A DNA stretch of 64,000 nucleotides from Clostridium sp. 'White wine YQ' (GTDB taxonomy: Bacteria; Bacillota; Clostridia; Clostridiales; Clostridiaceae). Positions 1,530 to 64,000 of this stretch are shown one piece after another. The notes below the pieces were generated by a model. That model was given only the letters and a program-made list of their open reading frames with translations. It did not search any database and had not been told where the DNA came from. Each line of letters begins with the position of its first letter. The stretch's first letter is position 1. Both the position numbers and the translations under genes were made by a program. The stretch covers positions 421,318 through 485,317 of the forward strand of contig NZ_JAQYUU010000001.1 in the NCBI RefSeq assembly GCF_028728205.1, in the 5' to 3' direction.

Positions 1530-2483
1530 ATGAAGTATGGAATAGCATTAGCATGTGCTGTATTTATAGTTTATTTAATTATTCCTGTTTTAATGAAATT
1601 ATTTGTAAAATATGATTTTTTAGATAAACCAACTGAAAGAAAAAAACATAAGGAACCAATACCTCTTTGTGGAGGACTTGGGATGTTTATCGGCTTTTTC
1701 GTAATGTATTTTGTATTTGTAGGAGATTTTATTACAAAGGAAAAGATTACAGTTTTTATAGCATCTCTAAGTATTTTATTAATTGGACTAATAGACGATT
1801 TCTATAAAACAAGAGGAAAAGAATTTCCTATATATCCTAGATTTATAGTACAAATACTTGCAGCTATTTTAGTTTATAGAAGTGGAATAGCTTTTAGTGG
1901 ATTTACAAATCCTTTTAATGGACAATATGTGGAATTGCACGTAGTGGTTCAATTTATTCTTACAATAACTTGGATATTTGGGGTTACTACAGTAATAAAT
2001 TGGTCAGATGGTATGGATGGACTTGCAGGTAGTTTGTCTACAATATCTTCAACAACTTTATTTGTTGTAGCTCTTGCAATGAGACAGCCAGAATCAGCTA
2101 TGATGTGTATTATATTAGTTGGATCTATTTTAGGTTTCTTAAAGTATAACAGACATCCAGCTAAAGTATTTATGGGAGATTCAGGCGCTAACTTTTTAGG
2201 ATTTATTTTAGGGATAATTGCCTTAGATGGAGCATTTAAGCAAGCTACAGTTATGAGTTTAATAATTCCAATATTAGCATTAGGTGTACCAATCTTTGAT
2301 AATTTATTTGTAATTTTTAAAAGATACGCAGAAGGTAAGCCTATATATCAAGCAGATAGGAGCCAAATACATTTTAGACTTCAAGAAAAAGGACTTACTA
2401 CAAATCAAATAGTTTTATATATTTGTGCAATTAGTATGTGCTTAAGCATAATATCAATAGTGTTATTATTTGTTAAAGTTTAA
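1530..2483 (+). CDS. glycosyltransferase family 4 (MraY/WecA/TagO-like) undecaprenyl-phosphate N-acetylhexosamine-1-phosphate transferase
   Basis: Polytopic membrane protein with the NWSDGMDGLAG motif and a DRSQIHFRL C-terminal motif. It lacks the MraY HHH motif and is not in a dcw cluster, so it is TagO/WecA-like. Confidence 0.75.
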   Translation: MKYGIALACAVFIVYLIIPVLMKLFVKYDFLDKPTERKKHKEPIPLCGGLGMFIGFFVMYFVFVGDFITKEKITVFIASLSILLIGLIDDFYKTRGKEFPIYPRFIVQILAAILVYRSGIAFSGFTNPFNGQYVELHVVVQFILTITWIFGVTTVINWSDGMDGLAGSLSTISSTTLFVVALAMRQPESAMMCIILVGSILGFLKYNRHPAKVFMGDSGANFLGFILGIIALDGAFKQATVMSLIIPILALGVPIFDNLFVIFKRYAEGKPIYQADRSQIHFRLQEKGLTTNQIVLYICAISMCLSIISIVLLFVKV

Positions 2484-4343: not shown

Positions 4344-4445
4344 ATATAAACCCTTCCTGTAGTTAAGTAATAAGTATATTATATCAGTATTGTAAGAATA
4401 AAAAAATATTTACAATATTATCATGATAGTGTATAATTTATTCAA

Positions 4446-4552
4446 ACTTATCTAGAGTGGTGGAGGGACTGGCCCAATGAAACCCAGCAACCTATAAGTT
4501 ATCATTTGACTTAGTGGGTGCTAATTCCTGCAGTGTTTAACTGGAAGATAAG
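4446..4552 (+). promoter_or_regulatory. SAM-I (S-box) riboswitch aptamer
   Basis: CTTATCtAGAGtGGtGGAGGGACTGGCCCaATGAAACCCaGCAACC ... GGGTGCTAATTCCTGCAG ... GAAGATAAGG matches the S-box consensus including the P1 pairing CTTATC/GATAAG. Confidence 0.85.
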
Positions 4553-4580
4553 GATATTATTTGGGGAAATCGCGTTATAT

Positions 4581-4631: not shown

Positions 4632-5519
4632 ATGTTTATTAAGGATATTTTTGAGAGTAGGAAGGTAGTTTATTCTTTTGAGATCTTTCCACCAAAGACT
4701 ACATCTTCACTTGAAACAATATACACAACACTAGAAAATCTTGGGGAATTAAAACCAGACTTTATATCAGTAACCTACGGAGCTGGTGGGAGTACAGTAG
4801 ATAATAAAACTACACAATTATCTTCACTAATTAAGAATAAATATGGTATTGAGGCACTTGCACACTTAACCTGCATTGGATCAACAAAAGAAGATATCAA
4901 TAATATTCTAAATGACTTGAAGAAGAATAATATTAATAATATCCTTGCACTTAGAGGAGATATTCCAATAGGTCAAACTAATAATGGGGAATTTTCCTAT
5001 GCTTATGAATTAGTTAATCACATTAAAGATCAAGGAGATTTTGGGGTCAGTGCTGCTTGTTATCCAGAAGGGCATATAGAATGCAGGAATTTAGAGCTTG
5101 ATATAGAGAGACTTAAGCAAAAGGTAGATAATGGTGCTGAACACTTAGTTTCTCAGTTGTTTTTTAATAATGAAATATTTTATAATTTTCTTGATAGAGC
5201 AGATAAAGAAGGAATCAATGTTCCTATTGAAGCAGGAATAATGCCAGTAGTGAATAAAAAGCAAATCGAGAGAATTAGCAGCCTTTGTGGTGCGCAGTTA
5301 CCAGCTAAATTCTTAAGAATGATGGACAAATATGAGCATAACCCTGAAGCTTTAAGAGATGCAGGAATAGCATATGCAGTAGAGCAGATAGTTGATCTAT
5401 TATCATCAGGAGTTAGGGGTATACACTTATATACAATGAATAATCCATTAGTAGCAAGAAGAATAACAGAAAATATAGGAACTATAATTACTACATTAAA
5501 TGAAAAGGCAGTTATTTAA
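4632..5519 (+). CDS. metF: 5,10-methylenetetrahydrofolate reductase
   Basis: VVYSFEIFPPKT N-terminus, LRGD motif, typical length; sits under a SAM riboswitch. Confidence 0.85.
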   Translation: MFIKDIFESRKVVYSFEIFPPKTTSSLETIYTTLENLGELKPDFISVTYGAGGSTVDNKTTQLSSLIKNKYGIEALAHLTCIGSTKEDINNILNDLKKNNINNILALRGDIPIGQTNNGEFSYAYELVNHIKDQGDFGVSAACYPEGHIECRNLELDIERLKQKVDNGAEHLVSQLFFNNEIFYNFLDRADKEGINVPIEAGIMPVVNKKQIERISSLCGAQLPAKFLRMMDKYEHNPEALRDAGIAYAVEQIVDLLSSGVRGIHLYTMNNPLVARRITENIGTIITTLNEKAVI

Positions 5520-8751: not shown

Positions 8752-11037
8752 ATGCATAATGAATTTGATTATGAAGTTGAAGTTCTTCAGGAGAAAAAGA
8801 ATAGGATCAACATTGAAATAGAGAGAAAAGTTAATGAAGAAGAGGGTTTTAAAACAAAAATTTCGGATTTAAAGAAAGCTTCAAGAGGAAGTTATAGCTT
8901 AGAGCTTGAGAATACAAAAATAATATATGATATAGTAAGTAAAAATCTTAAAAATTATTCAGAGGCTACAGAAAATCCTTATTTCGGAAGAATCGATTTT
9001 AAAGAAGATAAAAGAATGCCAGAAAATTTCTATATAGGAAAGTATGGTATATACGATTCAAAAGATGGGGAAGAGATAGTAATTGACTGGAGAGCACCTA
9101 TTGCAGACCTTTACTATAGTGGTACACAAGGAGAAGCATACTATAGATCACCAGTTGGTGTAATAAACGGAAAGCTTCAATTGAAAAGAAAGTTCTTAAT
9201 CAAAGATGGTGAACTTAAAGATATATTTGATGAAGGAATAAATGAAATAATTTTAAAAGGTGAAACTGCAGATGAAGAAAATGAATTAGTAGATGAATTT
9301 CTTAAAATAAATCTTGAAGAAAGTGCAGGAAGTAAGCTTAAGGAAGTAGTTGCTACAATTCAAAAAGAACAAAACGACATTATAAGAGCACCGCTTAATT
9401 TTCCACTGATTGTACAAGGTTCAGCAGGTTCAGGGAAAACTACAGTAGCACTTCATAGACTTGCGTATTTAGTTTATAGATATAATGAGAAGATAAAAGG
9501 GGAAGATATATTAGTATTAGCACCAAATAAATTGTTCCTAGATTATATATCTGAAATACTTCCTAATCTAGGTACTTATGAAGTTAATCAAAAAACTTTT
9601 CCTATTCTAGGGAAAGAATTTTTAGGATTAAAGGGTAAGATTTATACAAGAGACGAAAAGCTAAGGGAAATACTAGAAGGGGATAGTGAAAGAGCTAAAT
9701 ATTTAAAAAACATTAGTAAAATAAAAGGCTCAATACTATTTAAAACTATATTAGATAGATTAATTACCATTTGGGAAAGGGATTCACAAAATCTAGAGGA
9801 TATTAAAATTCAGGGATTTACTCTTTATGGAGCTAATGAAATTAAAAGATTATACTTTAAAGATTTGGTACATTTCCCGGTAAATAAAAGGATAGAAGAG
9901 ATACATAAATATTTTAATAAAAAGCTTGATAATACACTGCTTAGAGTATATGAGCAGCTTGATCTTTTCTATAATTTAAAGATAAATAAAATTAAAAAGA
10001 ACGAAGAAGATTCACTAGATAGAAGAAAGAAACTAATAGAAATATACGATGAGAGAGATGAGAAAAAGAAAAATCTTAGAAATGAAGCTATTTCAAAATT
10101 AAAAGAGTATTTCGAGGCTTGGAATAGTCAAAGTGGAGAAGGACTTTATTATAGATTGTTTGAGGAAGACGAAATATTTGAAGAAGCTACTGGTGAAAAG
10201 ATTCCTAAAAACTTAGAAAAATTTATGAGAGAAGAAGTTTTAAGTAATAGGGAAAAAGAAATAATAGATGAAGATGATATTGCAGCTCTTTTATATTTAA
10301 AGCTTAAAACTGAAGGAATTAAGGATGAGAATAAATATAAACATATAGTAATTGATGAGGCGCAAGATTATTCTCCGTTAATGTTTCATGTAACTAAAAT
10401 GATGTGCCAAGGAAGTTCTATGACTATAGTTGGGGATTTAGGACAAGGAATATATAGCTATAAAGGAATTAACAATTGGGAAACCTTAATTGAAGATATT
10501 TTTAATGGAGAATGTACCTTTATATCATTAAGTCAAAGCTATAGAAGTACTATGGAAATAATTGATGTTGCAAATATTGTTTTAAATAAGCAATTAAATG
10601 CTCCAAAGCCGGCAAAGGCAGTAATTAGAAGTGGACCAGTTCCGGAAATAATTGAATATAATAATTTCAAAGACTTGGCTAAGAATATTGATGAAAAGGT
10701 AGAAGAAATAAGAAATGCAAATAAGAAATCTATTGCAATAATTTGTAAGGATTTTGAGGAATGTAAAAAGCTTAAGAGCAGAATAAAAAATTATAGTAAT
10801 TTCTCCTGGGATGTTGTTAAAGAGGGGGATAAGGAGTTAAATGTAAATAATGTAATAATACCTTCATATTTAACAAAAGGATTAGAATTTGATGGTACAA
10901 TACTTTTTAATGTAGATAGCAGTTTATATAAAGATACAGAGGAAGATAAAAAATTACTATATGTAGCTTTAACAAGAGCTTTGCATAGAGAAACTATCTT
11001 CTATAAAGGGGAATTAACACCATTACTAGAAGCTTAG
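8752..11037 (+). CDS. helD: HelD-type UvrD-like DNA helicase (helicase IV)
   Basis: 761 aa; Walker A QGSAGSGKTTVALHRLAYL; UvrD-like C-terminal block (LYVALTRA). Confidence 0.75.
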   Translation: MHNEFDYEVEVLQEKKNRINIEIERKVNEEEGFKTKISDLKKASRGSYSLELENTKIIYDIVSKNLKNYSEATENPYFGRIDFKEDKRMPENFYIGKYGIYDSKDGEEIVIDWRAPIADLYYSGTQGEAYYRSPVGVINGKLQLKRKFLIKDGELKDIFDEGINEIILKGETADEENELVDEFLKINLEESAGSKLKEVVATIQKEQNDIIRAPLNFPLIVQGSAGSGKTTVALHRLAYLVYRYNEKIKGEDILVLAPNKLFLDYISEILPNLGTYEVNQKTFPILGKEFLGLKGKIYTRDEKLREILEGDSERAKYLKNISKIKGSILFKTILDRLITIWERDSQNLEDIKIQGFTLYGANEIKRLYFKDLVHFPVNKRIEEIHKYFNKKLDNTLLRVYEQLDLFYNLKINKIKKNEEDSLDRRKKLIEIYDERDEKKKNLRNEAISKLKEYFEAWNSQSGEGLYYRLFEEDEIFEEATGEKIPKNLEKFMREEVLSNREKEIIDEDDIAALLYLKLKTEGIKDENKYKHIVIDEAQDYSPLMFHVTKMMCQGSSMTIVGDLGQGIYSYKGINNWETLIEDIFNGECTFISLSQSYRSTMEIIDVANIVLNKQLNAPKPAKAVIRSGPVPEIIEYNNFKDLAKNIDEKVEEIRNANKKSIAIICKDFEECKKLKSRIKNYSNFSWDVVKEGDKELNVNNVIIPSYLTKGLEFDGTILFNVDSSLYKDTEEDKKLLYVALTRALHRETIFYKGELTPLLEA

Positions 11038-33168: not shown

Positions 33169-33253
33169 GCTGATGTGGCGGAATGGCAGACGCAGTGGAC
33201 TCAAAATCCACCGACCACAAATCGTGAGGGTTCGAGTCCCTCCATCAGCACCA
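33169..33253 (+). tRNA. tRNA-Leu (anticodon CAA)
   Basis: Acceptor stem GCTGATG/CATCAGC, anticodon loop CTCAAAA, long variable arm, TPsiC arm GGTTCGAGTCC, encoded CCA. Confidence 0.9.
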
Positions 33254-39282: not shown

Positions 39283-39562
39283 AATTATCACAAGAAAAGA
39301 GCAGCAAAAAAAGTTAGTAAATGCTCCTTGGAAAATAGGAAATTATCACCACAACTGCCTAGATAATGAAATTTAATTAATACAGAGAATTCTCTTAAAA
39401 TGAGATTTTCTGTATTTTTTTATGGGAAATATTATCTTATGCATCATGACGAAAAAAGAAGAAAAATGAAGAAGAAACAATAAAGAAAAGTAGATAAACA
39501 TACGATAATAATAATATAAATTGCAAGATATAGAAGAAAAATCCTTTGTGGGGAGTGATGAA

Positions 39563-41998
39563 ATGAAGGTTAAACAAAAAACTTTTTCTGTAGTTATTTT
39601 AAGTTTTATCTTCATGTTTCTGGTAACATATGCTGTATTTTATCTAGCATATTATGGATTCATAGAGAAACATAAAAAAAATGAAATAGAAGAAAGCTTT
39701 CAAACGGTAGACTATATTTTAAGCAATGAAGAAGAAAATTTGAAAAGTTCGCTTTTAGATTGGGCCGTTTGGGATGATACCTATGAATTTATAAATAATA
39801 AAAATGACGATTATATAAAATCTAACTTAGACTTTAGCTCGCTAGTTACACTGAATTTGAAAATGATGATCTTTTTAGATGATAAAGGTAATTTGGTATA
39901 TAGTAAAGAAACTGGAATTGATAAAGAAGTAGCAGAAGAGTTGAGTAATGAAATTTTACTAAAGAATAAAGAGATAAAAGATATTGGAAGTACTAAAAGT
40001 CCATTGCTTTTAGTAAAAAATAAAGCTTTTCTAGTTGCAAAGTCAAAGGTTACAAAATCAGATGATTCAGCTGATAGTAACGGATACTTGATATTTATTA
40101 GAGAAATTGATAATAAATTATTAGATTACATTCAAAAAACAGCAAAGACATCACTCACATTTAATAATATAAGTATTTCAGAAGATAAATATTACAAGGA
40201 TTTCAAAAGTTTAAATAATGAAGTTAAGTACCAAAAAGATAAATCGAGTTTTGAGGCTTATAAAGTTGAAACTGACGTATATGGTGAAAAGACTATAATG
40301 TTTTCCATAGAAACAGAACAAACTGATTATCAAGAATATTATTTTAGTATTTTTGTAATAGGAATTATTCTACAGATTTTATTAGTATTTGTTATTGATT
40401 ATATAGTTATCGACAAGCAAATATTTAAAAGACTTTCTAAATTGACTGATTTTATAGAGTATGTGGCAAAAACAAAGGATACGAGTCTCAATATTCAACT
40501 TAGTGGAGAGGATGAGCTTAATCAGCTAGCTGACTCTACTAACAGGATGTTAATGGAATTAAATAATGCCTACAAGGATATTAAAGAGAGTGATAAAAGA
40601 TTTAGAATAATAATGGAAGCTACGAGTGATGGATATTTAGATTTCTATGTGAAAAGCAGAGAAGTTTATATTAGCCCAGAATGGAAAGAAGAAATAGGGT
40701 ACGAGGGCGAAAATGGAATTGAATTATTTAAAAGTTATGTCTCTAAAATTCACCCTGATTGCATTGATAGATTAAGGGAAAAGTTCTACAAAGTAATTAA
40801 AGGTGAAGAAGATAGTTTCACAGAGGAATTTAAAATTATAAAAGAGTCTGGTGATATAATTTGGGTATCACAAAGAGGAAAGGTTTCAGAGAAAGACTCA
40901 CATGGAAAGCCAATAAGGATAGTAAGCACTTTATCTAATATAACAGACAGAAAGAAATATGAAGAAGAAATATTATATTTAAGTTTTACTGATAAGCTTA
41001 CTGGAATTAAAAATAGAGCTTATATGGAAAAGGTCTTTAGTGAATTAGATTCTAACGAAGAAGCTAAATATTTCATTATAATGGGAGATTTAAATGGATT
41101 AAAGCTAGTAAATGATTCTTTTGGACATACAGAGGGAGATAAATTGATTTATGCTGCAAGCAAAATATTAAGGGAAGCATGCAGTACCCATGAGATTATC
41201 TCAAGATGGGGTGGAGATGAATTTATTATAGTCATTGTAGATAAAGATAGAAGTTATATTTCAAAATTAATTGATGACATAAAAATTGCATGCCTGAAAG
41301 AAACAGGATATAAATTTAATATTAGCATAGCCTTAGGATATGCCGAAAAAAATGATGAATATCCTAATACTGAAGCTGTAATGTGTTTAGCTGAAAAAAG
41401 AATGTATCGTAATAAGCTTATGGAGGATAAGAGCTCTAGAAATTCTACAATAAGTTCATTATTAAGGACATTACATGAAAAACATAGTGAAACAGAGCAG
41501 CATACCATGAGAATAAAGAAATTAAGTTTAAAGCTAGGAAAGAGATTAGGATTAAGTGAAGATAAATTGGATGAACTAGGATTACTAGCTCTATTACATG
41601 ATATTGGAAAGATAGGAATACCTGAGCAGATATTAATGAAGCCTTCATCCTTAACAAAAGAAGAGTTTGATATAATGAAGACCCATACAGAAATAGGATA
41701 TAGAATTGCTAAATCAACACCTGTACTAGCACATATTGCAGATGAAATACTAAATCACCATGAAAAATATGATGGTACAGGCTATCCTATAGGACTAAAA
41801 GGAGAAGAAATTCCTCTTTTAGCAAGGATAATAAACATTGTAGATTCCTTTGATGTAATGACTCATCAGAGAGTTTACAAGGAAGCATTAAGTGTTGAAT
41901 TTGCCATTGAGGAATTAAAAAGATGTTCAGGAAAACAGTTTGATCCATATATAGTGCAAGAGTTTATTGACTTAATAAATGAAAAGAAAATATACTAG
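39563..41998 (+). CDS. membrane-anchored PAS / GGDEF / HD-GYP signalling protein (putative c-di-GMP synthase and phosphodiesterase)
   Basis: RWGGDEFIIV (GGDEF), HDIGKIGIP and HHEKYDGTGYP (HD-GYP). GGGGAGTGA RBS supports the ATG at 39563; the track start at 39521 has no RBS. Confidence 0.8.
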   Translation: MKVKQKTFSVVILSFIFMFLVTYAVFYLAYYGFIEKHKKNEIEESFQTVDYILSNEEENLKSSLLDWAVWDDTYEFINNKNDDYIKSNLDFSSLVTLNLKMMIFLDDKGNLVYSKETGIDKEVAEELSNEILLKNKEIKDIGSTKSPLLLVKNKAFLVAKSKVTKSDDSADSNGYLIFIREIDNKLLDYIQKTAKTSLTFNNISISEDKYYKDFKSLNNEVKYQKDKSSFEAYKVETDVYGEKTIMFSIETEQTDYQEYYFSIFVIGIILQILLVFVIDYIVIDKQIFKRLSKLTDFIEYVAKTKDTSLNIQLSGEDELNQLADSTNRMLMELNNAYKDIKESDKRFRIIMEATSDGYLDFYVKSREVYISPEWKEEIGYEGENGIELFKSYVSKIHPDCIDRLREKFYKVIKGEEDSFTEEFKIIKESGDIIWVSQRGKVSEKDSHGKPIRIVSTLSNITDRKKYEEEILYLSFTDKLTGIKNRAYMEKVFSELDSNEEAKYFIIMGDLNGLKLVNDSFGHTEGDKLIYAASKILREACSTHEIISRWGGDEFIIVIVDKDRSYISKLIDDIKIACLKETGYKFNISIALGYAEKNDEYPNTEAVMCLAEKRMYRNKLMEDKSSRNSTISSLLRTLHEKHSETEQHTMRIKKLSLKLGKRLGLSEDKLDELGLLALLHDIGKIGIPEQILMKPSSLTKEEFDIMKTHTEIGYRIAKSTPVLAHIADEILNHHEKYDGTGYPIGLKGEEIPLLARIINIVDSFDVMTHQRVYKEALSVEFAIEELKRCSGKQFDPYIVQEFIDLINEKKIY

Positions 41999-55490: not shown

Positions 55491-55621
55491 TTTGTACAAA
55501 AAGCCTTTTATTCAATATAAAGGTAAATAGTGAAGTATATAGTAAAATAATCGATAAATAGATAGTGCATCAAAATAGAATTTATAAAATTATTTAAGAG
55601 TAAACGAAAGGAGAAGTTATT

Positions 55622-56122
55622 ATGGAATTAATTTATTTAGGAATTTTGATAATTATAATACCTATATTAATATGGATAGCTTTAAAAGTAACATATAGAA
55701 GTATCAAAAGAAATGCTTATGGTAAGCTTATATTAAGTGTAAAGGATCATACATATGCAATTGATATTCTTGCAGGAGTGATTTTCTTATTGCTTGGAGG
55801 AAAGAATTTAATTGTAGTATTTATTGATGGAGAGACATTAATTACTCCAGGTTCATATTTGATGATGTTCTCACTGTGTTCAATTATCTATTTTGTTAGA
55901 GCAACATTTAGAATTGAAATAAGAGAAAATGGAATTCTATCAAAAAAAAGTGGTTGGACATGGGAAGAGGTAGAAAGTAGTTACATAAAAGAAACAAATA
56001 GTTCAGTAGTTATAACTTTTAAGTTTAAAAATAGTAGAAAAAAACCTACAAGTATTATGGTACATAAAAAAGATAGAATGGAAGTAGAGAGGAAGTTAGA
56101 AGAAATATTTACGAAAAAGTGA
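55622..56122 (+). CDS. membrane protein with two N-terminal TM helices and a bacterial-PH (YdbS/DUF304-like) cytoplasmic domain
   Basis: 166 aa; AAAGGAGAAG RBS; topology matches bPH_2 proteins. Confidence 0.5.
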   Translation: MELIYLGILIIIIPILIWIALKVTYRSIKRNAYGKLILSVKDHTYAIDILAGVIFLLLGGKNLIVVFIDGETLITPGSYLMMFSLCSIIYFVRATFRIEIRENGILSKKSGWTWEEVESSYIKETNSSVVITFKFKNSRKKPTSIMVHKKDRMEVERKLEEIFTKK

Positions 56123-56248
56123 TAAGTAGTAAATATTATTGTTATATTAGACAATTATTAACCAAGTGTTAAAAAATAAACATATTAAATAAAAATGTTC
56201 ATAATTTGTTATGTGATATAACAGTTAAAACTAGATGATTAAAGGACT

Positions 56249-56279
56249 GAGCAATTTAATGTTTAAATTGCTCTTTTTT
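56249..56279 (+). terminator. rho-independent terminator
   Basis: GAGCAATTTAA tgt TTAAATTGCTC TTTTTTG, a perfect 11-bp stem. Confidence 0.75.
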
Positions 56280-56364
56280 GTTAGAAAGTTAACAAAATTA
56301 AAAAATATTTACAAATTGGTTAAAATATTATAGCATTATTATGTAAGAAATTACAAAAAACCAT

Positions 56365-56515
56365 AGAAAAAGGCAAATTTATTGAAAGATAAAGACGCAA
56401 AGCCACGGGCCTACGGTATTCTAAATATGCATTTTGAAATTATTGTAATTATATTGGAGAATTATTTGTGATTGGCATATTTATACTAAGGTCGCCGGGT
56501 TACCAGAGTGGTATA
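56365..56515 (+). promoter_or_regulatory. c-di-GMP-I (GEMM) riboswitch
   Basis: AAGGCAAAtttattGAAAgataaaGACGCAAAGCCacGGGCCTA ... GGTCGCCGGGTTACCAGA matches the GEMM-I consensus: GGCAAA, a GAAA tetraloop on a 6-bp stem (TTTATT/GATAAA), GACGCAAAGCC and the 3-prime GCNGGGUUACC block. Sits 84 nt upstream of the Rhs start codon. Confidence 0.7.
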
Positions 56516-56598
56516 TTTCATTAAGATAACTTATGAAATCTATTCGCATATCTAAAATTAATTCTGCCCAAATCTATGGACTTATTAGGGGGTGTAAG

Positions 56599-59500
56599 AT
56601 GAAGAAAAACGTTCTAATAAGGGCCATATGTACTTTTCTGACTTTTTCTACTTTATTATTTTCTTTTAATGATGTAGTTGCTTATGCGGCTGAAAACTTA
56701 TCAAATCAGCCAAAGGGCGAATACTATGGAAAGGATATCAATAAGGAAAACCAAAAAGTAAAAACTGAAAATCAAACAGAAAACATTTCTACAAAGGCTC
56801 TTAGAAAACCAAGCACAATTAAACAAAAGAAGGAAGAATCTTATAGTAAGGATAAGGAAGTAGTTAGTAAAAGAACTGCAAATAGTAAAACCTATAAGAT
56901 AGATAACAAAACTGAAGTAAAAGATATTTATCTTGATAAAGTGAACTATAAAGATGCAAATGGAAATTATCAAGAGGTGGATAATACCTTAGCGCTAAAT
57001 AGCAATGGAGGATATTACGAAAATAAGGCAAACGATTATAAGGTTAATTTTCCTACTGAAATAACAAAAGATAAGGGAGTATCAGTACAAAAAGGAAATA
57101 CGTCTGTTACATTATTTCCTATGGAAGGGGACTTTTCAAGAAGTGCAGCTTCAGAAAATGCAATATTATACAATGATGTATTTGATGGAGTAGATTATGA
57201 GTATACAGCTAACCCAGATGGAGTTAAAGAGGATATTATACTTAATAGATATGTTGATACTTCTACATTTAAGTATCAAGTAAGCACTAAAGGAGTAATT
57301 CTTAAAGAAGAATTAAATTCAATAAGAGGATATGAACCAGGCAAAAAAGATCCTACCTTTATATTAAGTGCGCCTGTAATGGTTGATGCTTCAGGAAAAA
57401 AGAATAGCAATCTAACCATAAAGCTAGATAAAAAAATATTTGGTAAGGATGTTATTGCAGTAACAGTAGATGAAGATTGGCTCAAATCACCTGAGAGAGC
57501 ATATCCAGTAAAGGTTGACCCTCAAGTTAATATTTATAGTGATAGGATTAATATCGCGTCAGCGGAGGAAAATGCACCTAACACTAATACATTAAACAAT
57601 GGATATGTATATGTGGGAATGGACGATGGAGTAGCATCTGGAAATAATCAATATAAAATTAATGGGCTTCAAAAGACTAGAGCCTACGTTCAGATAAATG
57701 GTAATTTGGGAGTGGATATTCCTAAAGAGGCAACAATTAAGTCCGCTAATTTTGAAATGTATAAGTACACTAACTTTTCAAGTTCTTCAAGAGAAATTGG
57801 ATTATATAGTGTAGATGATAGTTATGATGTGAGCCAAGTTACTTGGAATCAACAGCCTAAGAATAAAACATTCTATTCTTCTGCGATGATAGATGGAAGT
57901 ATAGGTTATATTAGTTGGGATATTAAGTCATTGGTTAGTGATTGGGTAAATGGAAAAACAAATAATGGATTCCTCTTGCAGTATTTAAATGAAACCCAAC
58001 AGTGTGAAACCTTTGCAACTCAAAATAATGAATATGAATCTAGAAGACCAAAGATTGAAATCGTTTATGAGTTTGTAGATGGTGTAGATACTAATATGCA
58101 ATTTGGTGCAACAAATATTAATTTGAGGCCTATTTCTGAGCATGACAGTGAAGGGGAACTTAAAGTTGATGGAATTATAGTAGATGGATTAGTAAAACCA
58201 ACAGCTACTGTAAATTATGAATTAGATGTTGAAAATCCTGATTACAAGGGAAGTGTACAAGCTAGCTACGTTTATAAATATCCTGATGGTTCAATGTACT
58301 CAAGTATTTTTCCAAAGGCTTATGTTTATAAGGGAAAAGATAGTAACTGGCAGTCGGATAAGATATTAACTCCTAAATTAGATCAATTATACAGAATTAA
58401 GGCAACTGCAACCTTGGATGGAGAAACAAGTAGTCCAGCATACAGTGACTACTTCCAAATCTATCAAGTTCAAGCTAAGGATACTATTCCGTATATAGCA
58501 AGCTTTTATGGAGTACCTAATTCTGTAATTATGAGTGATAATAAAGTTGGAGATACTCTGCTTGTAGAGGGGAATACTCTTTTCATAAGAAATCCCAAGA
58601 AAAATGCTGGAAAGCCATATACGCCTCCATCCCTTACAGATGCTAGAAAAAAAGAAATAGATAGTGCTCTTATGGGAAGAAAAAAGCATTGTATTTATGG
58701 GTTTGAACCAATAAATTTACTAACTGGTAACTTTATATATGAAGCTGATGATGCTAGTTTAACTGACTACAATGGAGACTTTATAATAAAGAGAACTTAT
58801 AACGCAATGGAAGAAATTCATGATGGATACTTTGGAGTAAAATGGGACTTTAATTTTAATAAGTCTTTATCAGCACTTGCAGATGGAACCATAATATTTA
58901 ATCAAGGTGATGGAAGTACCATCTACTATAGAAAAAATAGTGATGGCAGCTACAGTGGACCAGTGGGAGAAAATTTAAAGCTATCCTTAGTTAATGATGA
59001 TAGCAGAAAAAATATAGGCTACGAGGTTACTGATGGTTTAACCACCTATCAATTTAATAAGATGGGACTTTTAGATTCACAAGTTGATGAAAAAGGTGAT
59101 ATTACAAAGCTTGCCTATAATGAAGATTATAAATTAACAAGTATAACTTCACCTTCAGGAAAGGTTTTTGGAATAACCTTAAATGATGAAGGAAGAATAG
59201 GCACAATAACATTACCAAATTCAAGCGTATTAAAATATAGTTATGATGGAAATGGTAACTTAGTTTCGTATATTGATGCAAATGGACATGAAACAAAGTA
59301 TCAATATGATGACAAAGGAAGAATGACATCATTTGTTGATGCCAAGGGAAATACCGTAGTAACTAATACTTATGATGAGCAAAATCGTGTAACTACTCAA
59401 ACAGATGCTCAAGGTAAGAAAATATATATGAATTATTACGACGGGTACAATGAAACAATTGATGCAAAGGGCAATAAGACACAATATTATTATGATGCAC

Positions 59501-62500
59501 AGTTTAGGATAACTAAAACTGTAAAGCCTGATGGAACTGTAGAGACAGTTACATATGATAGTAATAACAATGTAAAAACATCAACAGATGCTTTGGGGCA
59601 TACTACTACTTATGAATATGATAGTAGGGGAAATAAGACTAAAGAATATAGATATGATGGAAAAGTAAAGACTTTCAAGTATGATGACAAAGATAATCTT
59701 ACATCCGTTACTGATTTTGAGGGAAATACAACTACAATGGCATATGATAGCAAAGGAAATCTAGTAAAGGTTACTGATGCTAATAATTTAACATATGAAT
59801 ATACCTATAATAGTAAAAATCAGGTAACAACAGCAATAGATCCATCAGGAAAGAGTTATAAATACGAATATGATGGAGCTAATGTATCACAAGCTACTGA
59901 TGCGAAGGGAAATGTATATAAGTATTTTTATAATGCTATGGGTAAGGTTATATCTATAGAAGATCCTTTGGGGAAGATTACAAGAATAGCTTATGATGCT
60001 AAAGGAAATGAATTAAGCACTACTCTGCCTGACGGAGGCATAGTAGCATATACCTATGATGTTAATGATAATAAAAGTTCGGTAACTGATGGTAACAAAA
60101 ATTTATCTAAGTTTGAATATGATAGCTTAAACAGGGTGACTAAATCTACAGATCCTTTTGGTAATATAACAACCTATTTCTATGATGAAAATGGTAATAA
60201 CACTGGAGAAAAGAATCCAGAAGGGTATACTAAGACCTACCAATACGACAAATTAAATAGGCTTATTAAAGTAATTGATGGAGAACAAGGTGAGACGACT
60301 TATGATAGGGATGCTTTAGGAAATATTATATCTGTAACAGATCCTAATGGAAATAAGTCTTCGTATACTTACAATTATGCAGTAAATCAAGTTGAAAAAG
60401 TGATAGGTGCCAAAGGGCAAACCATAGTAAATAAGTATGACAATCAAGGAAATGTATTACAATCAACACTACCAGATGGTGAAGTGAAAAAATACAAGTA
60501 TGACAATCTATACAGGTTGACACAATTTACTGATGTAAACGGAGTAGTAACAGACACCACTTATGATAATTTAGGTAGAATTTCTTATATGAAGGATAGC
60601 TTAAATAGAGAATATTATTATAGTTATGATGATAATGGAAATCTTATTAGCACAAAGGATCCTTTAGGTTATAAAGTAAATTATACTTATGATGTAAGAA
60701 ATCAAGTGACTTCTGTTACTGATGAAGAGGGAAAAACTACAAAATATAGTTATACTGATACAGGTAATCTAAAATCAGTGACAGACCCTCTTGGATATAC
60801 TAAATCCTATGAGTATGATTTAAATGGAAATTTAAAGACAGAAATATCACCTAATGGGGGCAAGCAAATCTATAATTATGATGGATTAAATAGATTAACC
60901 TCTGTTAAGGATGCGCTTGAAAACATTACTCAGTATGCTTATGATAAAGCAGGTAATGTAACTAAGATGATAGATCCGTTGGGAAAAGAAACAAAATATG
61001 AATATAACGGTAATAAGCTTCAAACGAAAATCACTGATGCTTTAGGTGATGTTGTTCAAATGAAGTATGATAAAGATGGAAATTTAACTAGTGTAGTATA
61101 TCCAAATGGTGACGTAGTAACTATGGCATACGATTCAAATAATAAATTAATCTCAGAAACTGATGCAGCAGGATTGAAGAAAAGTTATAGTTATGACAAT
61201 ATGGATAGAATAGCAACTCAAGAGGATACTGCAGGAAATAAGCTCACTAATCTTTATGATGATAAGGGAAGACTTATAGAGCAAAAGGATGTAATTGGCA
61301 GAACCATAAAATATAGCTATGATATAGCAGGGAATATTACTGCTAAGACTAGCACAGATGGAAACATAACTACTTATGAATATGATAAAAGAGATAGAGC
61401 AGTTAAGGTTACTGACCCAGAGGGAAAAGTTACTACAATTTCCTATGATGGCTTGAACAGAGTAACAGGAAAAATAGAACCTGAAAATAAAAAGTATCAG
61501 TATCAATATGATGATGTAGGAAATCTAATTAATGTAATTGATCCTTTAAACAATTCAACATCCTATGCATACGATAAAAACAAAAATTTAACTCAAGTTA
61601 CAAATGCAAAGGGTGCAGCAAAAAAATATCAATACGATGCTCTAAATAGACTTATTAGTTTTGCAGATGAAAATGGCAATACAACAAATTTATCTTATGA
61701 TGCTAGAGGAAGCCTAATAAAAGTTCAAGATCCTATGAATAATACCACTCAGTATAAATATGATCCTATTAATAGATTAGAGATGAAGGTAGATGCTTTA
61801 GGATTTGGAACTCAATATCAGTATGACAGCTTAAATAATATGGTTGGGGAAATCGATGCTAAGGGAAATAAGACAAGCTATGAATATAATAAACATGGTT
61901 TGCAGACAAAGAAAATAGATCCTTTAGGTGGAACAACACAATTCCAATATGATTTAAATGATAGATTAACTACACAAATAAATCCTATGGATGAGAAATA
62001 TAGCTATTCATATGATAAAGTTCAAAGAATTACAGCTATAACTGATCCAGAAGGATATTCAAAGAGCTTTAGTTATGATGAATTAGGTAATTTAACAAAG
62101 CAATCAGATTCGGAAAATAGTGTTACAACTTATACTTATGATAAGATGCATAGACTACTATCAGAAAAGAATACTGTAGGAAATGTAACATCTTACGGAT
62201 ATAGTACTGCAGGAAATCTAAATTCTATTAAAGAGCCAAATGGCAACATGAGTTTTTATGAATATGATGCACTTGATAGAGTTAATAAAACAACAGATCC
62301 AGAGGGGAACATCACTAAGTTAGAATATGATTCCTTGGGAAATATAACAAAGGTAACTCAACCAGGAAGTAGAGATTATAAGTATACTTATGATGCGGCA
62401 AACAATCTTGAAAGTGAAACAAATCCTTTAGGGGAAGTGACTAAATATACTTATAATAAAAACAATTTGGTAGAGTCAGTTACTAACCCAATTGGTAGTA

Positions 62501-64000
62501 AAACTACTTATAAATATAATCCATTAAACTTAATTTCACAAACAACAAATCCAGTAGGCGGTGTTACTAAATATGATTATGATAAAAATCAAAATTTAGC
62601 TTCTGTAACTGATGGAAATAACAATAAAATTTCTTACGGATATGATGAGTTAAATAGATTAGTAAATGTAACAAGTCCTAAAGGAGATGAAACTAAGTAT
62701 ACCTATGATAAGTCAAGCAATCTTACATCTATGGTAAATGGTAATGGAAATGAAACTAAGTATACCTATGATAAAGTAGGAAGACTTACATCTGTTACTA
62801 ATCCCCTTGGAGAAAAAGAGAACTTTACTTATAATCCAGTAGGTACCCTTTCAAGCCATATTAAACCTGATGGAACCAAAACAAATTACGATTATGATAA
62901 ACTTAATAGGCTTGTCTCAAAAGAGTATAAAGATGCTAATGGAGACAAAGTAGAAGGTGAAGATGTAAGCTATGAATATGACATAAGTGGTAATCGTACA
63001 AAGATGATAGGGGCTGAAGGAGAGACAGACTATAAATATGACAAGATGGGAAGGCTTACTTTAGTAGACTTTGTTGGAGGAGAAAAAGTAACCTATGAAT
63101 TTGACAGCCTAGGAAGAAAATCTAAGGTTATATATCCAGATGGAAAGTATGTGAAGTATAATTATGATGCACTAGATAGATTAACATATGCAGAAAATTG
63201 GAATGGTGAAAAAACTTACTATAGCTATGATAGTGCTGGTAGAAGAAAAGAAGCCTTGCTTCCAAATGGAACTAAAGTAATTTATACTTATGATGGTGCA
63301 GATAGAATTACTAAATTAGAAAATATTAATAAAGATGGTAAGCTTATATCTAGCTTTGAATATCAGTATGATAAAGCTGGAAACATAATAAATGAAAAAG
63401 CTGTACATGAAGATGAAAGCTATGTGAGAACTTATAGCTATGATGCTTCAAATGAAATCACATCTTTTACTGAAGAAAGTCACGAAGAAGACGGAAAAAT
63501 TGAAACAAAGAAATACGATTATAGCTATGATAAAGCAGGTAACCGTATAGCAGTACAAGTAAAGGATGATAATGAAGAGGCTGAGGTTACTACCTATGCT
63601 TATAATGCAGGGGATGAACTAGTTAGTGAAAAGAGTGGAGACACTAATATAAAATATGAGTATGATAAGAATGGAAACAGACTTAAAAAGATTCGTCCTG
63701 GTCAAAAAATAGAGTATTATGAGTATGATTTAGAGGATAGATTAGTTCAAATCTCTAATCCAAAAGGTGAAGTTCTTACTTTTGGATATGATAGTGACGG
63801 AAATAGATTATTCTCAACTTATGGAGTATACTTTAAACCACAGCCAGATAAAGAAGAAAATGGCGATGGCACTTCAAGTGGTAATTCAGGTGGTAACTCT
63901 AATGCAGGGAATCCACAAAACTCTAATAACGGAAATCATTATGGTTTTGAAACAGAAAATAATCCTCATCAAGAAGTAGCTGCAGGAGGAACCACAACTA
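56599..64000 (+). CDS. giant secreted Rhs/YD-repeat protein (polymorphic-toxin family), 5-prime part only (more than 2467 codons)
   Basis: GGGGGTG RBS and a signal peptide (MKKNVLIRAICTFLTFSTLLFSFNDVVAYAAEN). No stop in frame 1 from 56599 to 64000; codons were checked at about 40 positions. The Rhs core entry motif (HCIYGFEPINLLTGNF) lies near residue 700, followed by dozens of YxYDxxGN repeats. Absent from the ORF track because it is open at the window edge. Confidence 0.85.
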   Translation, partial: MKKNVLIRAICTFLTFSTLLFSFNDVVAYAAENLSNQPKGEYYGKDINKENQKVKTENQTENISTKALRKPSTIKQKKEESYSKDKEVVSKRTANSKTYKIDNKTEVKDIYLDKVNYKDANGNYQEVDNTLALNSNGGYYENKANDYKVNFPTEITKDKGVSVQKGNTSVTLFPMEGDFSRSAASENAILYNDVFDGVDYEYTANPDGVKEDIILNRYVDTSTFKYQVSTKGVILKEELNSIRGYEPGKKDPTFILSAPVMVDASGKKNSNLTIKLDKKIFGKDVIAVTVDEDWLKSPERAYPVKVDPQVNIYSDRINIASAEENAPNTNTLNNGYVYVGMDDGVASGNNQYKINGLQKTRAYVQINGNLGVDIPKEATIKSANFEMYKYTNFSSSSREIGLYSVDDSYDVSQVTWNQQPKNKTFYSSAMIDGSIGYISWDIKSLVSDWVNGKTNNGFLLQYLNETQQCETFATQNNEYESRRPKIEIVYEFVDGVDTNMQFGATNINLRPISEHDSEGELKVDGIIVDGLVKPTATVNYELDVENPDYKGSVQASYVYKYPDGSMYSSIFPKAYVYKGKDSNWQSDKILTPKLDQLYRIKATATLDGETSSPAYSDYFQIYQVQAKDTIPYIASFYGVPNSVIMSDNKVGDTLLVEGNTLFIRNPKKNAGKPYTPPSLTDARKKEIDSALMGRKKHCIYGFEPINLLTGNFIYEADDASLTDYNGDFIIKRTYNAMEEIHDGYFGVKWDFNFNKSLSALADGTIIFNQGDGSTIYYRKNSDGSYSGPVGENLKLSLVNDDSRKNIGYEVTDGLTTYQFNKMGLLDSQVDEKGDITKLAYNEDYKLTSITSPSGKVFGITLNDEGRIGTITLPNSSVLKYSYDGNGNLVSYIDANGHETKYQYDDKGRMTSFVDAKGNTVVTNTYDEQNRVTTQTDAQGKKIYMNYYDGYNETIDAKGNKTQYYYDAQFRITKTVKPDGTVETVTYDSNNNVKTSTDALGHTTTYEYDSRGNKTKEYRYDGKVKTFKYDDKDNLTSVTDFEGNTTTMAYDSKGNLVKVTDANNLTYEYTYNSKNQVTTAIDPSGKSYKYEYDGANVSQATDAKGNVYKYFYNAMGKVISIEDPLGKITRIAYDAKGNELSTTLPDGGIVAYTYDVNDNKSSVTDGNKNLSKFEYDSLNRVTKSTDPFGNITTYFYDENGNNTGEKNPEGYTKTYQYDKLNRLIKVIDGEQGETTYDRDALGNIISVTDPNGNKSSYTYNYAVNQVEKVIGAKGQTIVNKYDNQGNVLQSTLPDGEVKKYKYDNLYRLTQFTDVNGVVTDTTYDNLGRISYMKDSLNREYYYSYDDNGNLISTKDPLGYKVNYTYDVRNQVTSVTDEEGKTTKYSYTDTGNLKSVTDPLGYTKSYEYDLNGNLKTEISPNGGKQIYNYDGLNRLTSVKDALENITQYAYDKAGNVTKMIDPLGKETKYEYNGNKLQTKITDALGDVVQMKYDKDGNLTSVVYPNGDVVTMAYDSNNKLISETDAAGLKKSYSYDNMDRIATQEDTAGNKLTNLYDDKGRLIEQKDVIGRTIKYSYDIAGNITAKTSTDGNITTYEYDKRDRAVKVTDPEGKVTTISYDGLNRVTGKIEPENKKYQYQYDDVGNLINVIDPLNNSTSYAYDKNKNLTQVTNAKGAAKKYQYDALNRLISFADENGNTTNLSYDARGSLIKVQDPMNNTTQYKYDPINRLEMKVDALGFGTQYQYDSLNNMVGEIDAKGNKTSYEYNKHGLQTKKIDPLGGTTQFQYDLNDRLTTQINPMDEKYSYSYDKVQRITAITDPEGYSKSFSYDELGNLTKQSDSENSVTTYTYDKMHRLLSEKNTVGNVTSYGYSTAGNLNSIKEPNGNMSFYEYDALDRVNKTTDPEGNITKLEYDSLGNITKVTQPGSRDYKYTYDAANNLESETNPLGEVTKYTYNKNNLVESVTNPIGSKTTYKYNPLNLISQTTNPVGGVTKYDYDKNQNLASVTDGNNNKISYGYDELNRLVNVTSPKGDETKYTYDKSSNLTSMVNGNGNETKYTYDKVGRLTSVTNPLGEKENFTYNPVGTLSSHIKPDGTKTNYDYDKLNRLVSKEYKDANGDKVEGEDVSYEYDISGNRTKMIGAEGETDYKYDKMGRLTLVDFVGGEKVTYEFDSLGRKSKVIYPDGKYVKYNYDALDRLTYAENWNGEKTYYSYDSAGRRKEALLPNGTKVIYTYDGADRITKLENINKDGKLISSFEYQYDKAGNIINEKAVHEDESYVRTYSYDASNEITSFTEESHEEDGKIETKKYDYSYDKAGNRIAVQVKDDNEEAEVTTYAYNAGDELVSEKSGDTNIKYEYDKNGNRLKKIRPGQKIEYYEYDLEDRLVQISNPKGEVLTFGYDSDGNRLFSTYGVYFKPQPDKEENGDGTSSGNSGGNSNAGNPQNSNNGNHYGFETENNPHQEVAAGGTTT

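Follow-up and report, generated by a model that had tools for sequence, protein, structure and literature searches.

A wall-associated Rhs protein that mediates contact-dependent inhibition is known from Bacillus subtilis, in the WapA/WapI pair. At ~2,300 aa, this WapA is smaller than the protein described here, carries CWB2-type wall-binding repeats instead of DNRLRE and LysM domains, and is regulated by protein factors, not by a riboswitch. It has YD repeats, as does the protein described here, and combines them with Sec secretion and wall association, which are predicted here too; its C-terminal toxin is polymorphic, and an immunity gene lies beside its own gene (cited in PMC12704120). Streptococcus suis WapA-CT1 was shown experimentally to be exported in a Sec-dependent manner, to be located in the wall and to be antibacterial (PMC12704120). 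It is built from a Sec signal, an unassigned N-terminal domain, DNRLRE, LysM and DUF6531 domains, an Rhs shell and a C-terminal toxin (PMC12704120), and our protein resembles it in domain order and size, its own C-terminal toxin being a prediction. WapA-CT1 has 3,158 aa, which is similar, and its NCWB fragment (aa 1-734) matches the ~700-aa region that precedes the Rhs shell here (PMC12704120). In S. suis, genes for a SecF-like protein and SrtB lie upstream and are coupled to the toxin gene (PMC12704120), whereas the gene studied here has neither neighbour, and no riboswitch has been reported for WapA-CT1, in contrast to the c-di-GMP-I aptamer that we describe.

This aptamer is of the same class as Cd1/Cdi1 of C. 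difficile, Bc1/Bc2 of B. thuringiensis and Vc2 of V. cholerae, and, as with other c-di-GMP-I elements, the gene whose 5′ leader holds it is a surface or behaviour gene of a Firmicute. V. cholerae TfoY is controlled through the class I riboswitch Vc2. Control there is indirect and runs from riboswitch to regulator to secretion system, whereas here the riboswitch lies directly on a Gram-positive toxin mRNA. In V. cholerae, too, the c-di-GMP level gates an interbacterial weapon, the T6SS, which low c-di-GMP induces (PMC6618264). The class I elements of C. difficile control flagella, adhesins and a protease (PMC11477304). They are transcriptional OFF switches, whereas our leader has no terminator, and an Rhs/WapA toxin target is absent from the C. 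difficile class I gene list (PMC11477304).

We analysed a 64,000-nucleotide stretch of clostridial DNA (the window), at the 3′ edge of which lies a 7.4-kb open reading frame. Taken alone, the Rhs protein that it encodes is a further member of the recognised Gram-positive family of wall-anchored polymorphic toxins; of all features of the locus, the c-di-GMP-I riboswitch is the most informative. Taken as a whole, the locus probably encodes a Sec-exported, wall-associated polymorphic toxin of the WapA type behind a conserved c-di-GMP-I riboswitch that would switch by means of a long-range helix (helix H). The coupling of a c-di-GMP riboswitch to an Rhs weapon appears to be undescribed, as we found no paper in the literature linking such a riboswitch to an Rhs/WapA toxin.

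The c-di-GMP-I aptamer and its distribution

The c-di-GMP-I (GEMM-I) riboswitch aptamer was identified at 56362..56507 (+) by its match to Rfam RF01051 (score 74.5 bits, gathering score 35, E=8e-15), which extends over the full length of the model (1-87/87). It lies 91 nt upstream of the Rhs start codon on the same strand. Its score is below the 88-91 bits of its relatives, and the distal loop of its second hairpin holds a 62-nt hairpin insertion (56421-56482). The consensus junction stretches AAAGGCAAA, GACGCAAAGC and GUUACC, where we take the ligand contacts of the aptamer to lie, are all present. When the aptamer was folded alone, ACCAU (56360-56364) paired with GUGGU (56508-56512) to form the closing stem P1, and this stem covaries, as ACCAU/GUGGU is replaced by AAAAU/GUUUGU at two orthologous loci (L010 and L012).

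Covariation extends to the rest of the fold. In 12 orthologous aptamers, aligned by fitting to the model, which somewhat favours the structure, 96.9% of cells were paired and 14 of the 22 pairs had compensatory changes on both sides. None of 500 shuffles matched the observed values, and slid controls paired at 28-44%. Profile match and covariation together show that the 5′ leader of the gene carries a predicted c-di-GMP-I riboswitch, an arrangement kept across species.

The aptamer was found upstream of the orthologue in all 11 of the closer relatives that could be assessed (L001/L013, L002, L003, L004/L011, L005, L007, L008, L009, L010, L012 and L056), in one of them, the Desulfosporosinus orthologue, as the GGC variant RF03167. 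It also precedes the orthologue at two distant Lachnospira/Eubacterium MAG loci (L015/L016), and altogether the riboswitch stands in front of relatives in at least 13 other genomes. The c-di-GMP-I aptamer was absent from ~45 distant gut homologues, and the possibility that these use another riboswitch class was rejected for L014, L018, L022, L025 and L026, where Rfam gave no match. Since the flanking genes are not conserved between loci, the riboswitch travels with the Rhs gene. Accessory genes of the S. suis kind were rejected, as neither SecF-like nor sortase B genes lie next to the Rhs gene here or in the relatives from Clostridium. Upstream in the window are genes for proteins of the His_Phos_1 and DUF2334 types and for a weakly DUF5673-like protein.

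The terminator of the upstream gene lies at 56249-56273 and was the sole terminator match in 55500-56800. Downstream of it, a consensus scan gave a candidate sigma-70-type promoter for the riboswitch-Rhs transcript, TTTACA-17-TAGCAT, at 56308..56336 (+); the call is weak, because promoter-like matches were as numerous as expected from shuffled sequence. A CHASE4-PAS-GGDEF-HD-GYP protein is encoded in the same window, which indicates that the organism uses c-di-GMP. The sequence-only reading of this DNA dealt with the coding region, outside which the aptamer lies, and had missed the riboswitch.

Helix H and the direction of switching

Between the aptamer and the gene, leader comparison and folding indicated an expression-platform hairpin, ATTTCATTAAG-ATAA-CTTATGAAAT, at 56515..56539 (+), which the closest relatives share, with loops that vary. 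Since no U-tract follows it, the hairpin is no intrinsic terminator. The terminator scan was empty for the leader in the window, and we rejected an intrinsic-terminator platform for it; the longer leaders of L002 and L003 contain terminator-like hairpins. Further downstream, at 56564..56580 (+), RNAduplex and leader comparison identified CUGCCCAAAUCUAUGGA as the 3′ strand of the bipartite helix H. This strand pairs with CCAUAGA (56361-56367), which overlaps the 5′ strand of P1, and with GGCA (56372-56375) in the aptamer core. The gene has the Shine-Dalgarno sequence AGGGGG (56587-56592) and the start codon ATG (56599-56601), both on the forward strand and read directly from the sequence, and this SD-AUG arrangement is kept in homologues together with the N-terminal peptide MKK..IRAI.

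The helix has a predicted energy of -15.6 kcal/mol (z=-4.7), which none of 300 shuffles equalled, and it is included in the unconstrained MFE structure of the leader. It recurs in 8 of the 11 leaders (z-scores from -3.9 to -7.8), and in L056 compensatory substitutions (GACAAAU/AUUUGUC) preserve the pairing. In the window, 18 nt separate the end of helix H from the AUG, and in 7/11 leaders the distance is exactly 18 nt as well, despite platforms of 69-290 nt. Because helix H would occupy the 5′ strand of P1 and the GGCA core, it and the aptamer are predicted to be mutually exclusive, an arrangement that is well supported. With its long-range anti-aptamer helix at a fixed distance of 18 nt from the AUG, the leader differs from the class I elements named above.

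We propose that the 5′ flank and the GGCA core would pair either locally, in P1 and the ligand-binding fold, or, in helix H, with the downstream strand that stops 18 nt short of the AUG. The predicted stability favours helix H by ~20 kcal/mol in the ligand-free RNA; c-di-GMP that binds while the leader is being transcribed would therefore hold the aptamer in place and block the helix. Blocking helix H would in turn alter the structure near the ribosome-binding site. Since the leader in the window has no terminator, control is most likely exerted at translation initiation.

We give about an even chance to the reading that a contact-dependent polymorphic toxin is here under the direct control of a second-messenger riboswitch and that the Rhs weapon has co-evolved with the c-di-GMP-I riboswitch; the same reading extends to a clade of Clostridium and Desulfosporosinus with some Lachnospira/Eubacterium, and to the unusual anti-aptamer helix as its platform. 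If true, interbacterial killing would be tied at the RNA level to the motile-sessile decision, and interbacterial antagonism would join flagella, pili, adhesins and proteases among the RNA-wired c-di-GMP outputs of Clostridia. When Gram-positive anaerobes deploy contact-dependent toxins has so far been largely unknown, and the riboswitch offers a testable handle on it. The leader is also a compact natural case of a riboswitch that would act over 70-290 nt through a covarying helix with fixed start-codon spacing, and it would be useful for the study of translational riboswitch mechanisms in Firmicutes.

As to the sign of the response, we lean weakly towards repression of the Rhs gene by c-di-GMP (OFF) and give activation (ON) a little less than an even chance. 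In 8 of 9 usable leaders, the computed cost of opening the ribosome-binding site was greater with the aptamer locked than with helix H formed (+2.3 to +10 kcal/mol), which speaks against ON; the values for L010 and L003 are artefacts, as the enforced helix overlaps the ribosome-binding site, and in the leader of the window the cost was the same in both states (+0.13 kcal/mol). In L005, L012, L013 and L056, pyrimidine-rich anti-SD stretches overlap the H strand that would be released. A model in which the released strand acts as the anti-SD had fitted these four leaders and the opening energies before controls were applied. We dropped it when blocking or shuffling the released strand gave no specific relief of occlusion. 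These specificity controls undercut the computed lean to OFF, and we claim no direction, because the occlusion predicted for the ligand-bound state in leaders other than that of the window does not depend specifically on the released strand.

An ON switch, by which the high c-di-GMP of sessile or biofilm growth would bring on the contact-dependent toxin alongside adhesins while neighbours touch, is a possibility that we put somewhat below even. It has a precedent in the class I riboswitch Bc2 upstream of a collagen adhesion protein gene of B. thuringiensis (PMC4933901), and a wall-anchored weapon that requires contact would be most useful in dense sessile communities; against it, the class I riboswitches of C. 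difficile are OFF switches (PMC11477304) and the V. cholerae T6SS is induced by low c-di-GMP (PMC6618264).

The N-terminal module of the Rhs protein

Translation of 56599-64000 (+) gave 2,467 codons with 0 stops, and the frame continues past the window edge. The DNA around it has only ~30% GC, so an open frame of 7.4 kb is not a product of chance. The sequence-only reading had called a giant secreted Rhs/YD protein and had explained its absence from the supplied ORF track solely by the frame running past the end of the window. The ORF listing agrees with that explanation, and the identification is correct, as RHS/YD HMM matches and a Sec-type signal peptide were found. We conclude that the ORF is real and that its product, a giant Rhs toxin of the WapA type from a Clostridium, is in itself rather unremarkable. 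The best match in a set of 5.8 billion protein sequences has just 60% identity over the full length, and the AF2 model has a pLDDT of 83. Pfam matches to TGFb_propeptide, WD40 and EML were dismissed as fold-level or low-score noise, and the Pfam scan of the protein gave no match to PAAR.

From the N-terminus on, the protein has a signal peptide, a beta domain, the DNRLRE/CBM96 glycan-binding-like domain, another beta domain, LysM, the DUF6531 plug and the YD-repeat shell. The signal peptide (56599..56688 (+), aa 1-30) was recognised by inspection and from an AF2 helix: MKKNVLIRAICTFLTFSTLLFSFNDVVAYA, which is followed by AE, has the n, h and c regions and the AXA site of a Sec signal, with predicted cleavage after AYA. 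In the AF2 model, residues 4-33 form the helix and residues 32-64 a disordered linker. Beta-rich domain 1 follows (56860..57540 (+), aa 88-314). It has no family match, and as an isolated domain it was modelled by AF2 with a pLDDT of 94.6. Foldseek against the PDB returned weak matches only (best E=4e-3, TMq 0.47), which were beta-sandwich domains of polysaccharide lyase PL33 and of GH92/GH97 enzymes.

All peptides quoted in the sequence-only reading were recovered in the translation, and those assigned there to DNRLRE-type and LysM-like domains fall within HMM matches. The block SVDDSYDVSQVTWNQQPKNK...NNGFLLQY lies in the DNRLRE / CBM96 carbohydrate-binding-module-like domain (57565..58062 (+), aa 323-488), which matches the NCBIfam model DNRLRE_dom NF033679 with 85.5-88.4 bits (cutoff 34) and Pfam CBM96 PF24517 with 50.7 bits (cutoff 26). 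Its Foldseek match is 8wab_B, a chondroitin-sulfate-binding CBM (TMt 0.72, rmsd 3.2 A). The alginate-binding TM6-N4, with ~30% identity to DNRLRE members, is the sole case in which carbohydrate binding has been shown (PMC9971899). Beta-sandwich domain 3 (58084..58440 (+), aa ~496-614) was delimited by AF2 secondary structure (pLDDT 82-96), and neither the Pfam nor the NCBIfam scan matched it. The S. suis paper calls its N-terminal beta domains 'similar' (PMC12704120). An internal duplication of the three beta domains here was rejected, as hhalign profile comparison found no similarity among them.

The stretch DTIPYIASFYGVPNSVIMSDNKVGDTLLVEGNTLFIRNP corresponds to a LysM-like peptidoglycan-binding domain (58462..58587 (+), aa 622-663). 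The match to PF01476 is borderline against the cutoff of 20.9, with 19.7 bits in the full protein, 20.9 in an 800-aa fragment and 21.1 in a 734-aa fragment. It recurred at E<=0.01 in 6/6 family members tested (best E-value 7.9e-5), and AF2 predicted the beta-alpha-alpha-beta fold of LysM at 619-664 (E619-623, H630-637, H641-648, E660-664; block pLDDT ~77-96). The LysM-like assignment is borderline by the Pfam threshold, and the predicted fold agrees with it.

The ~700 residues before the shell had been called unusual, which they are not. The module is standard for a widespread Firmicute family: it is kept at 39-75% identity across close and distant homologues, occurs at 64 loci in GTDB representative genomes and matches the S. 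suis NCWB. It would tether the protein to peptidoglycan or to a surface glycan.

The Rhs shell and the predicted C-terminus

Entry into the Rhs shell was correctly placed at HCIYGFEPINLLTGNF, where DUF6531, the N-terminal plug, begins (58705..58929 (+), aa 703-777; PF20148, 52.6 bits against a cutoff of 24.1). DUF6531 is present in 6/6 aligned homologues. The RHS/YD-repeat shell occupies 58930..64000 (+), aa ~778-2467, with 863 bits over 44 stretches for RHS_repeat PF05593 and 640 bits over 41 stretches for YD_repeat_2x TIGR01643. The window edge cuts it inside a low-complexity loop that in homologues precedes the Rhs-associated core. When the last 400 aa were used in tblastn, the core (Rhs_assc_core TIGR03696, 59-69 bits in homologues) was found to begin 190-320 aa after the equivalent of the window end in L011, L007, L001, L002 and L003, and the family consensus of the core is ...NNPxNxxDPSGH. 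A 3′ extension gave no exact match to the last 70 nt of the window in the genome or metagenome contig collections.

Full-length homologues have 2,900-3,450 aa and polymorphic C-termini with AHH, Ntox15, GH-E, Tox-HNH-EHHH, PT-HINT, CHAP or lysozyme domains, and Imm8 and Imm50 ORFs lie 12-17 nt downstream of homologous genes. The best explanation of the ORF is that it encodes the first ~75-80% of a ~3,050-3,270-aa WapA-type protein from a Clostridium related to C. tunisiense / C. folliculivorans. By analogy with these homologues and with the S. suis and B. subtilis WapA proteins, we infer that the part beyond the window comprises the Rhs-associated core, with the DPxG motif for autoproteolytic cleavage, and a variable toxin of ~300-410 aa held in the shell, and that a small immunity gene follows a few nucleotides downstream. 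The toxin would reach neighbouring bacteria on contact.

A decayed or interrupted Rhs pseudogene, disrupted beyond the window so that no functional toxin is made, is improbable. Interruptions do occur among the relatives. The gene of L004/L011 (Clostridium sp. UBA4548) is called as 460 + 2,749 aa and that of the Logan contig L005 as 773 + 1,539 aa, and in L007 (C. tunisiense) the ORF breaks off within the Rhs core, after which comes a 529-aa ORF with a complete core and C-terminal domain of its own. Where a repetitive 10-kb gene has been assembled in a MAG or draft genome, however, such breaks are often assembly or sequencing errors, and intact homologues of 3,137-3,257 aa exist. In the window itself, 2,467 stop-free codons in AT-rich DNA, domains that all score as intact, and a conserved SD, AUG and riboswitch argue against decay. 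Given the interruptions in several of the nearest relatives, an intact product is not guaranteed.

It is very unlikely that the protein is instead an adhesin, or a host-directed Rhs/teneurin-like or Tc-like toxin whose CBM96 and LysM domains bind host or environmental glycans: the alginate binding of CBM96/DNRLRE relatives (PMC9971899), the chondroitin sulfate bound by the closest fold match, 8wab_B, and the peptidoglycan-binding, lysozyme or CHAP tips that some family members have in place of nucleases would fit it, but lysozyme and CHAP tips are antibacterial too, homologues have the interbacterial toxin domains AHH, HNH-EHHH, Ntox15 and GH-E with Imm8/Imm50 directly downstream, no TcA or TcB partners are encoded nearby, and the S. 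suis protein of the same architecture kills bacteria (PMC12704120). We thus retain the antibacterial toxin as the preferred reading. In L003, the homologous gene is followed by an orphan Rhs fragment.

The WapA-type gene and its N-terminal module

The frame that opens at window position 56599 on the forward strand runs for 2,467 codons without a stop to position 64000 and continues past the window end. In DNA of ~30% GC, chance cannot account for a 7.4-kb open frame. A sequence-only reading had called it a giant Rhs protein, missing from the ORF listing solely because the frame leaves the window; this proved correct, and every peptide string quoted there was found in the translation. HMM searches identified DUF6531 (aa 703–777, 52.6 bits) and a repeat shell of 44 RHS_repeat and 41 YD_repeat stretches. 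They also confirmed the suspected DNRLRE similarity (NCBIfam DNRLRE_dom, aa 323–488, 85.5–88.4 bits, cutoff 34; Pfam CBM96, 50.7 bits, cutoff 26). The proposed LysM-like stretch was matched at aa 622–663 with a score that is only borderline in the window protein (19.7–21.1 bits, cutoff 20.9), and all six aligned family members match the domain.

We then modelled residues 1–734 with AF2 (pLDDT 83, pTM 0.73) and resolved five parts: a first beta-rich domain (~88–314), the DNRLRE/CBM96 domain (~315–495), a third beta domain (~496–614), a LysM with beta-alpha-alpha-beta topology (619–664) and the start of the plug. The N-terminus (MKKNVLIRAICTFLTFSTLLFSFNDVVAYA followed by AE) looks like a Sec signal peptide by inspection, and the model gives it a helix that leads into a disordered linker. 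Foldseek matched the 1–734 model to a chondroitin-sulfate-binding CBM (8wab_B, TMt 0.72) and also to the arm domain of pro-TGF-beta, a fold match that accounts for stray TGFb_propeptide Pfam hits in homologues. Domain 1 modelled in isolation reached a pLDDT of 94.6; its best matches, all weak (best E=4e-3), were beta-sandwich domains from polysaccharide lyases and from glycoside hydrolases. No profile similarity was found among the three N-terminal beta domains.

The ~700 residues without YD repeats, initially considered unusual, are the normal N-terminus of a family, since the first 800 residues can be aligned over their whole length to homologues (39–75% identity) and the module turned up at 64 loci when GTDB representative genomes were scanned for its pattern; the nearest are in Clostridium tunisiense (82%), Clostridium sp. 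UBA4548 (81%) and C. folliculivorans (79%). A search of a large protein collection recovered proteins of 2,900–3,450 aa, mainly from Clostridia, that cover 91–100% of the query; the top match, from Candidatus Clostridium radicumherbarum, has 3,257 aa and is 60% identical. Their C-terminal domains vary (AHH, Ntox15, GH-E, Tox-HNH-EHHH, PT-HINT, CHAP, lysozyme and peptidoglycan-binding). The window protein has the same architecture as the 3,158-aa WapA-CT1 of Streptococcus suis described in 2025, with DNRLRE, LysM, DUF6531, Rhs and a C-terminal toxin; residues 1–734 of that protein were defined as the N-terminal wall-binding 'NCWB' fragment, and the protein was shown to depend on Sec for export, to localise to the wall and to kill other bacteria in an immunity-dependent way (PMC12704120). 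The Rhs gene is thus real and was correctly identified, but it adds only one more ordinary member to the WapA-type family.

The 3′ end of the gene

The last 70 nt of the window had no exact match in genome or metagenome collections. Using tblastn with the last 400 residues, we located the position in homologues that corresponds to the window end; the Rhs-associated core (TIGR03696) starts 190–320 residues further on and is followed by 300–410 variable residues; ~590–800 residues are therefore missing from the window protein. At homologous loci a small ORF lies 12–17 nt after the Rhs gene. It encodes Imm8 in L002 and Imm50 in L003 (Desulfosporosinus nitroreducens, which also carries an orphan Rhs fragment), and has no family assignment in L001 and L011 (the latter Clostridium sp. 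UBA4548). This family pattern is consistent with the toxin domain and immunity gene that had been predicted just downstream of the window. In the Eubacteriales MAG locus L014, an Rfam match to 5_ureB_sRNA (1727–2024 (-), 108.9 bits) is unrelated to the riboswitch described below.

Several close relatives carry interrupted genes: 460+2,749 aa in UBA4548, 773+1,539 aa in a Logan contig (L005), and a truncated gene in C. tunisiense. In all three, the break may come from misassembly of repetitive sequence, or the gene may truly have decayed or recombined. In C. tunisiense TJ (L007 17462–20695), the main Rhs ORF ends within the Rhs-associated core (positions 1–47 of 76) and is followed by a 529-aa ORF with a complete core and C-terminal domain and then by a 174-aa ORF, an arrangement suggestive of a toxin cassette, displaced or orphan, or of a scar left by recombination.

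A c-di-GMP-I aptamer ahead of the Rhs gene

What adds interest to the locus is a conserved c-di-GMP-I riboswitch with a long-range expression platform. An Rfam scan of the whole window placed the aptamer at 56362–56507 (+), 91 nt before the start codon, with the full model matched (74.5 bits, gathering score 35). The score is reduced from the 88–91 bits of relatives by a 62-nt insertion (56421–56482 (+)) in the second hairpin's distal loop. This insertion extends the hairpin stem (AAAUAUGC/GCAUAUUU), with 8 perfect base pairs, and is absent in 11 of 11 orthologous aptamers. Elsewhere in the window, the scan found a SAM (S-box) riboswitch at 4445–4554 (+), before the ORF at 4632–5519 (79.7 bits, gathering score 44.4), and a lone tRNA gene at 33169–33250 (+) (60.2 bits).

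The aptamer also precedes the orthologue in Ca. C. radicumherbarum, a JGI metagenome contig, Clostridium sp. UBA4548 and a Logan contig, and a covariance model built from such copies detected it in C. tunisiense, C. folliculivorans, a Clostridium MAG, a Bacillota MAG, C. polynesiense and Clostridium sp. LS. In D. nitroreducens (JAMHFY010000030.1, L003 5797–5882) the element belongs to the GGC variant of the class, c-di-GMP-I-GGC (RF03167; 67.4 bits, gathering score 59), whose ligand may differ from c-di-GMP, and a strong intrinsic terminator comes after it. Two Lachnospira/Eubacterium MAG loci (L015/L016, 40% identity) have a c-di-GMP-I aptamer (9157–9252) with a U run after it, ~60 nt before a start codon of an Rhs frame that begins with an extra hydrophobic extension of ~230 aa instead of a simple signal peptide. 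An aptamer was thus present in all assessable relatives whose N-termini are at least 49% identical, in Desulfosporosinus and in the two MAG loci; it was absent in ~45 more distant gut homologues, and five of these that were sampled had no riboswitch of any Rfam class. Gene neighbourhoods vary between the loci, which indicates that riboswitch and Rhs gene travel together.

In an alignment of 12 orthologous aptamers, standard pairs fill 96.9% of pair cells and 14 of 22 pairs have compensatory changes; none of 500 shuffles scored as high, and slid controls gave 28–44% pairing. The in-house model also detected an aptamer in Peribacillus acanthi (L067 12646–12741 (-), 63 bits), on the opposite strand and ~1.3 kb away from a gene that encodes a protein with a DNRLRE domain.

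In open-access papers and bioRxiv we found no description of a c-di-GMP riboswitch coupled with an Rhs/WapA/YD-repeat polymorphic toxin, and the list of class I targets in C. difficile holds no Rhs gene (PMC11477304). This suggests that the coupling is absent from the literature. A known toxin family and a known riboswitch class are newly combined here, which makes second-messenger control of a Gram-positive contact-dependent toxin directly testable.

Expression platform and direction of control

When the aptamer was folded alone, its closing stem P1 paired ACCAU (56360–56364) with GUGGU (56508–56512); in the homologous loci L010 and L012 the two strands co-change to AAAAU and GUUUGU. No terminator was found within the Rhs leader; the terminator of the upstream gene lies at 56249–56273. 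Downstream of the aptamer, CUGCCCAAAUCUAUGGA at 56564–56580 is complementary to the extended 5′ strand of P1 (CCAUAGA) and to GGCA in the aptamer core, forming a bipartite long-range helix, H, that belongs to the unconstrained minimum-energy fold. H beats shuffles in 8 of 11 leaders (z −3.9 to −7.8), its 3′ end lies exactly 18 nt ahead of the AUG in 7 of 11 although platforms range from 69 to 290 nt, and in Clostridium sp. LS it carries a compensatory change (GACAAAU in the aptamer, AUUUGUC downstream). As H overlaps the 5′ strand of P1 and the aptamer core, H and the aptamer are mutually exclusive. In short leaders, ligand-free ensembles with H were computed to be ~20 kcal/mol more stable, which is consistent with kinetic switching, whereby c-di-GMP binding to the nascent RNA would trap the aptamer.

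We compared the computed cost of opening the Shine-Dalgarno (SD)–AUG region in the two states. For 8 of 9 usable leaders, opening cost more with the aptamer enforced than with H (+2.3 to +10 kcal/mol), and the change in the window's own leader was only +0.13 kcal/mol. In four leaders, pyrimidine-rich stretches that overlap the released strand are able to pair with the SD, but blocking or shuffling that strand gave no specific relief of occlusion; part of the effect arises because H encloses all upstream sequence. Since occlusion is not specific to the released strand, these models lean only weakly towards repression by c-di-GMP. Either direction has precedents. In C. difficile, class I riboswitches work as OFF switches (PMC11477304), and low c-di-GMP is reported to induce the V. 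cholerae T6SS (PMC6618264); Bc2, also class I, turns a collagen adhesin on in B. thuringiensis (PMC4933901). The window also encodes, 17 kb upstream of the Rhs gene and its riboswitch (39521–41998 (+)), an 825-aa protein with CHASE4, PAS, GGDEF and HD-GYP (HD_5) domains, likely a c-di-GMP synthase/phosphodiesterase with an extracellular sensor domain.
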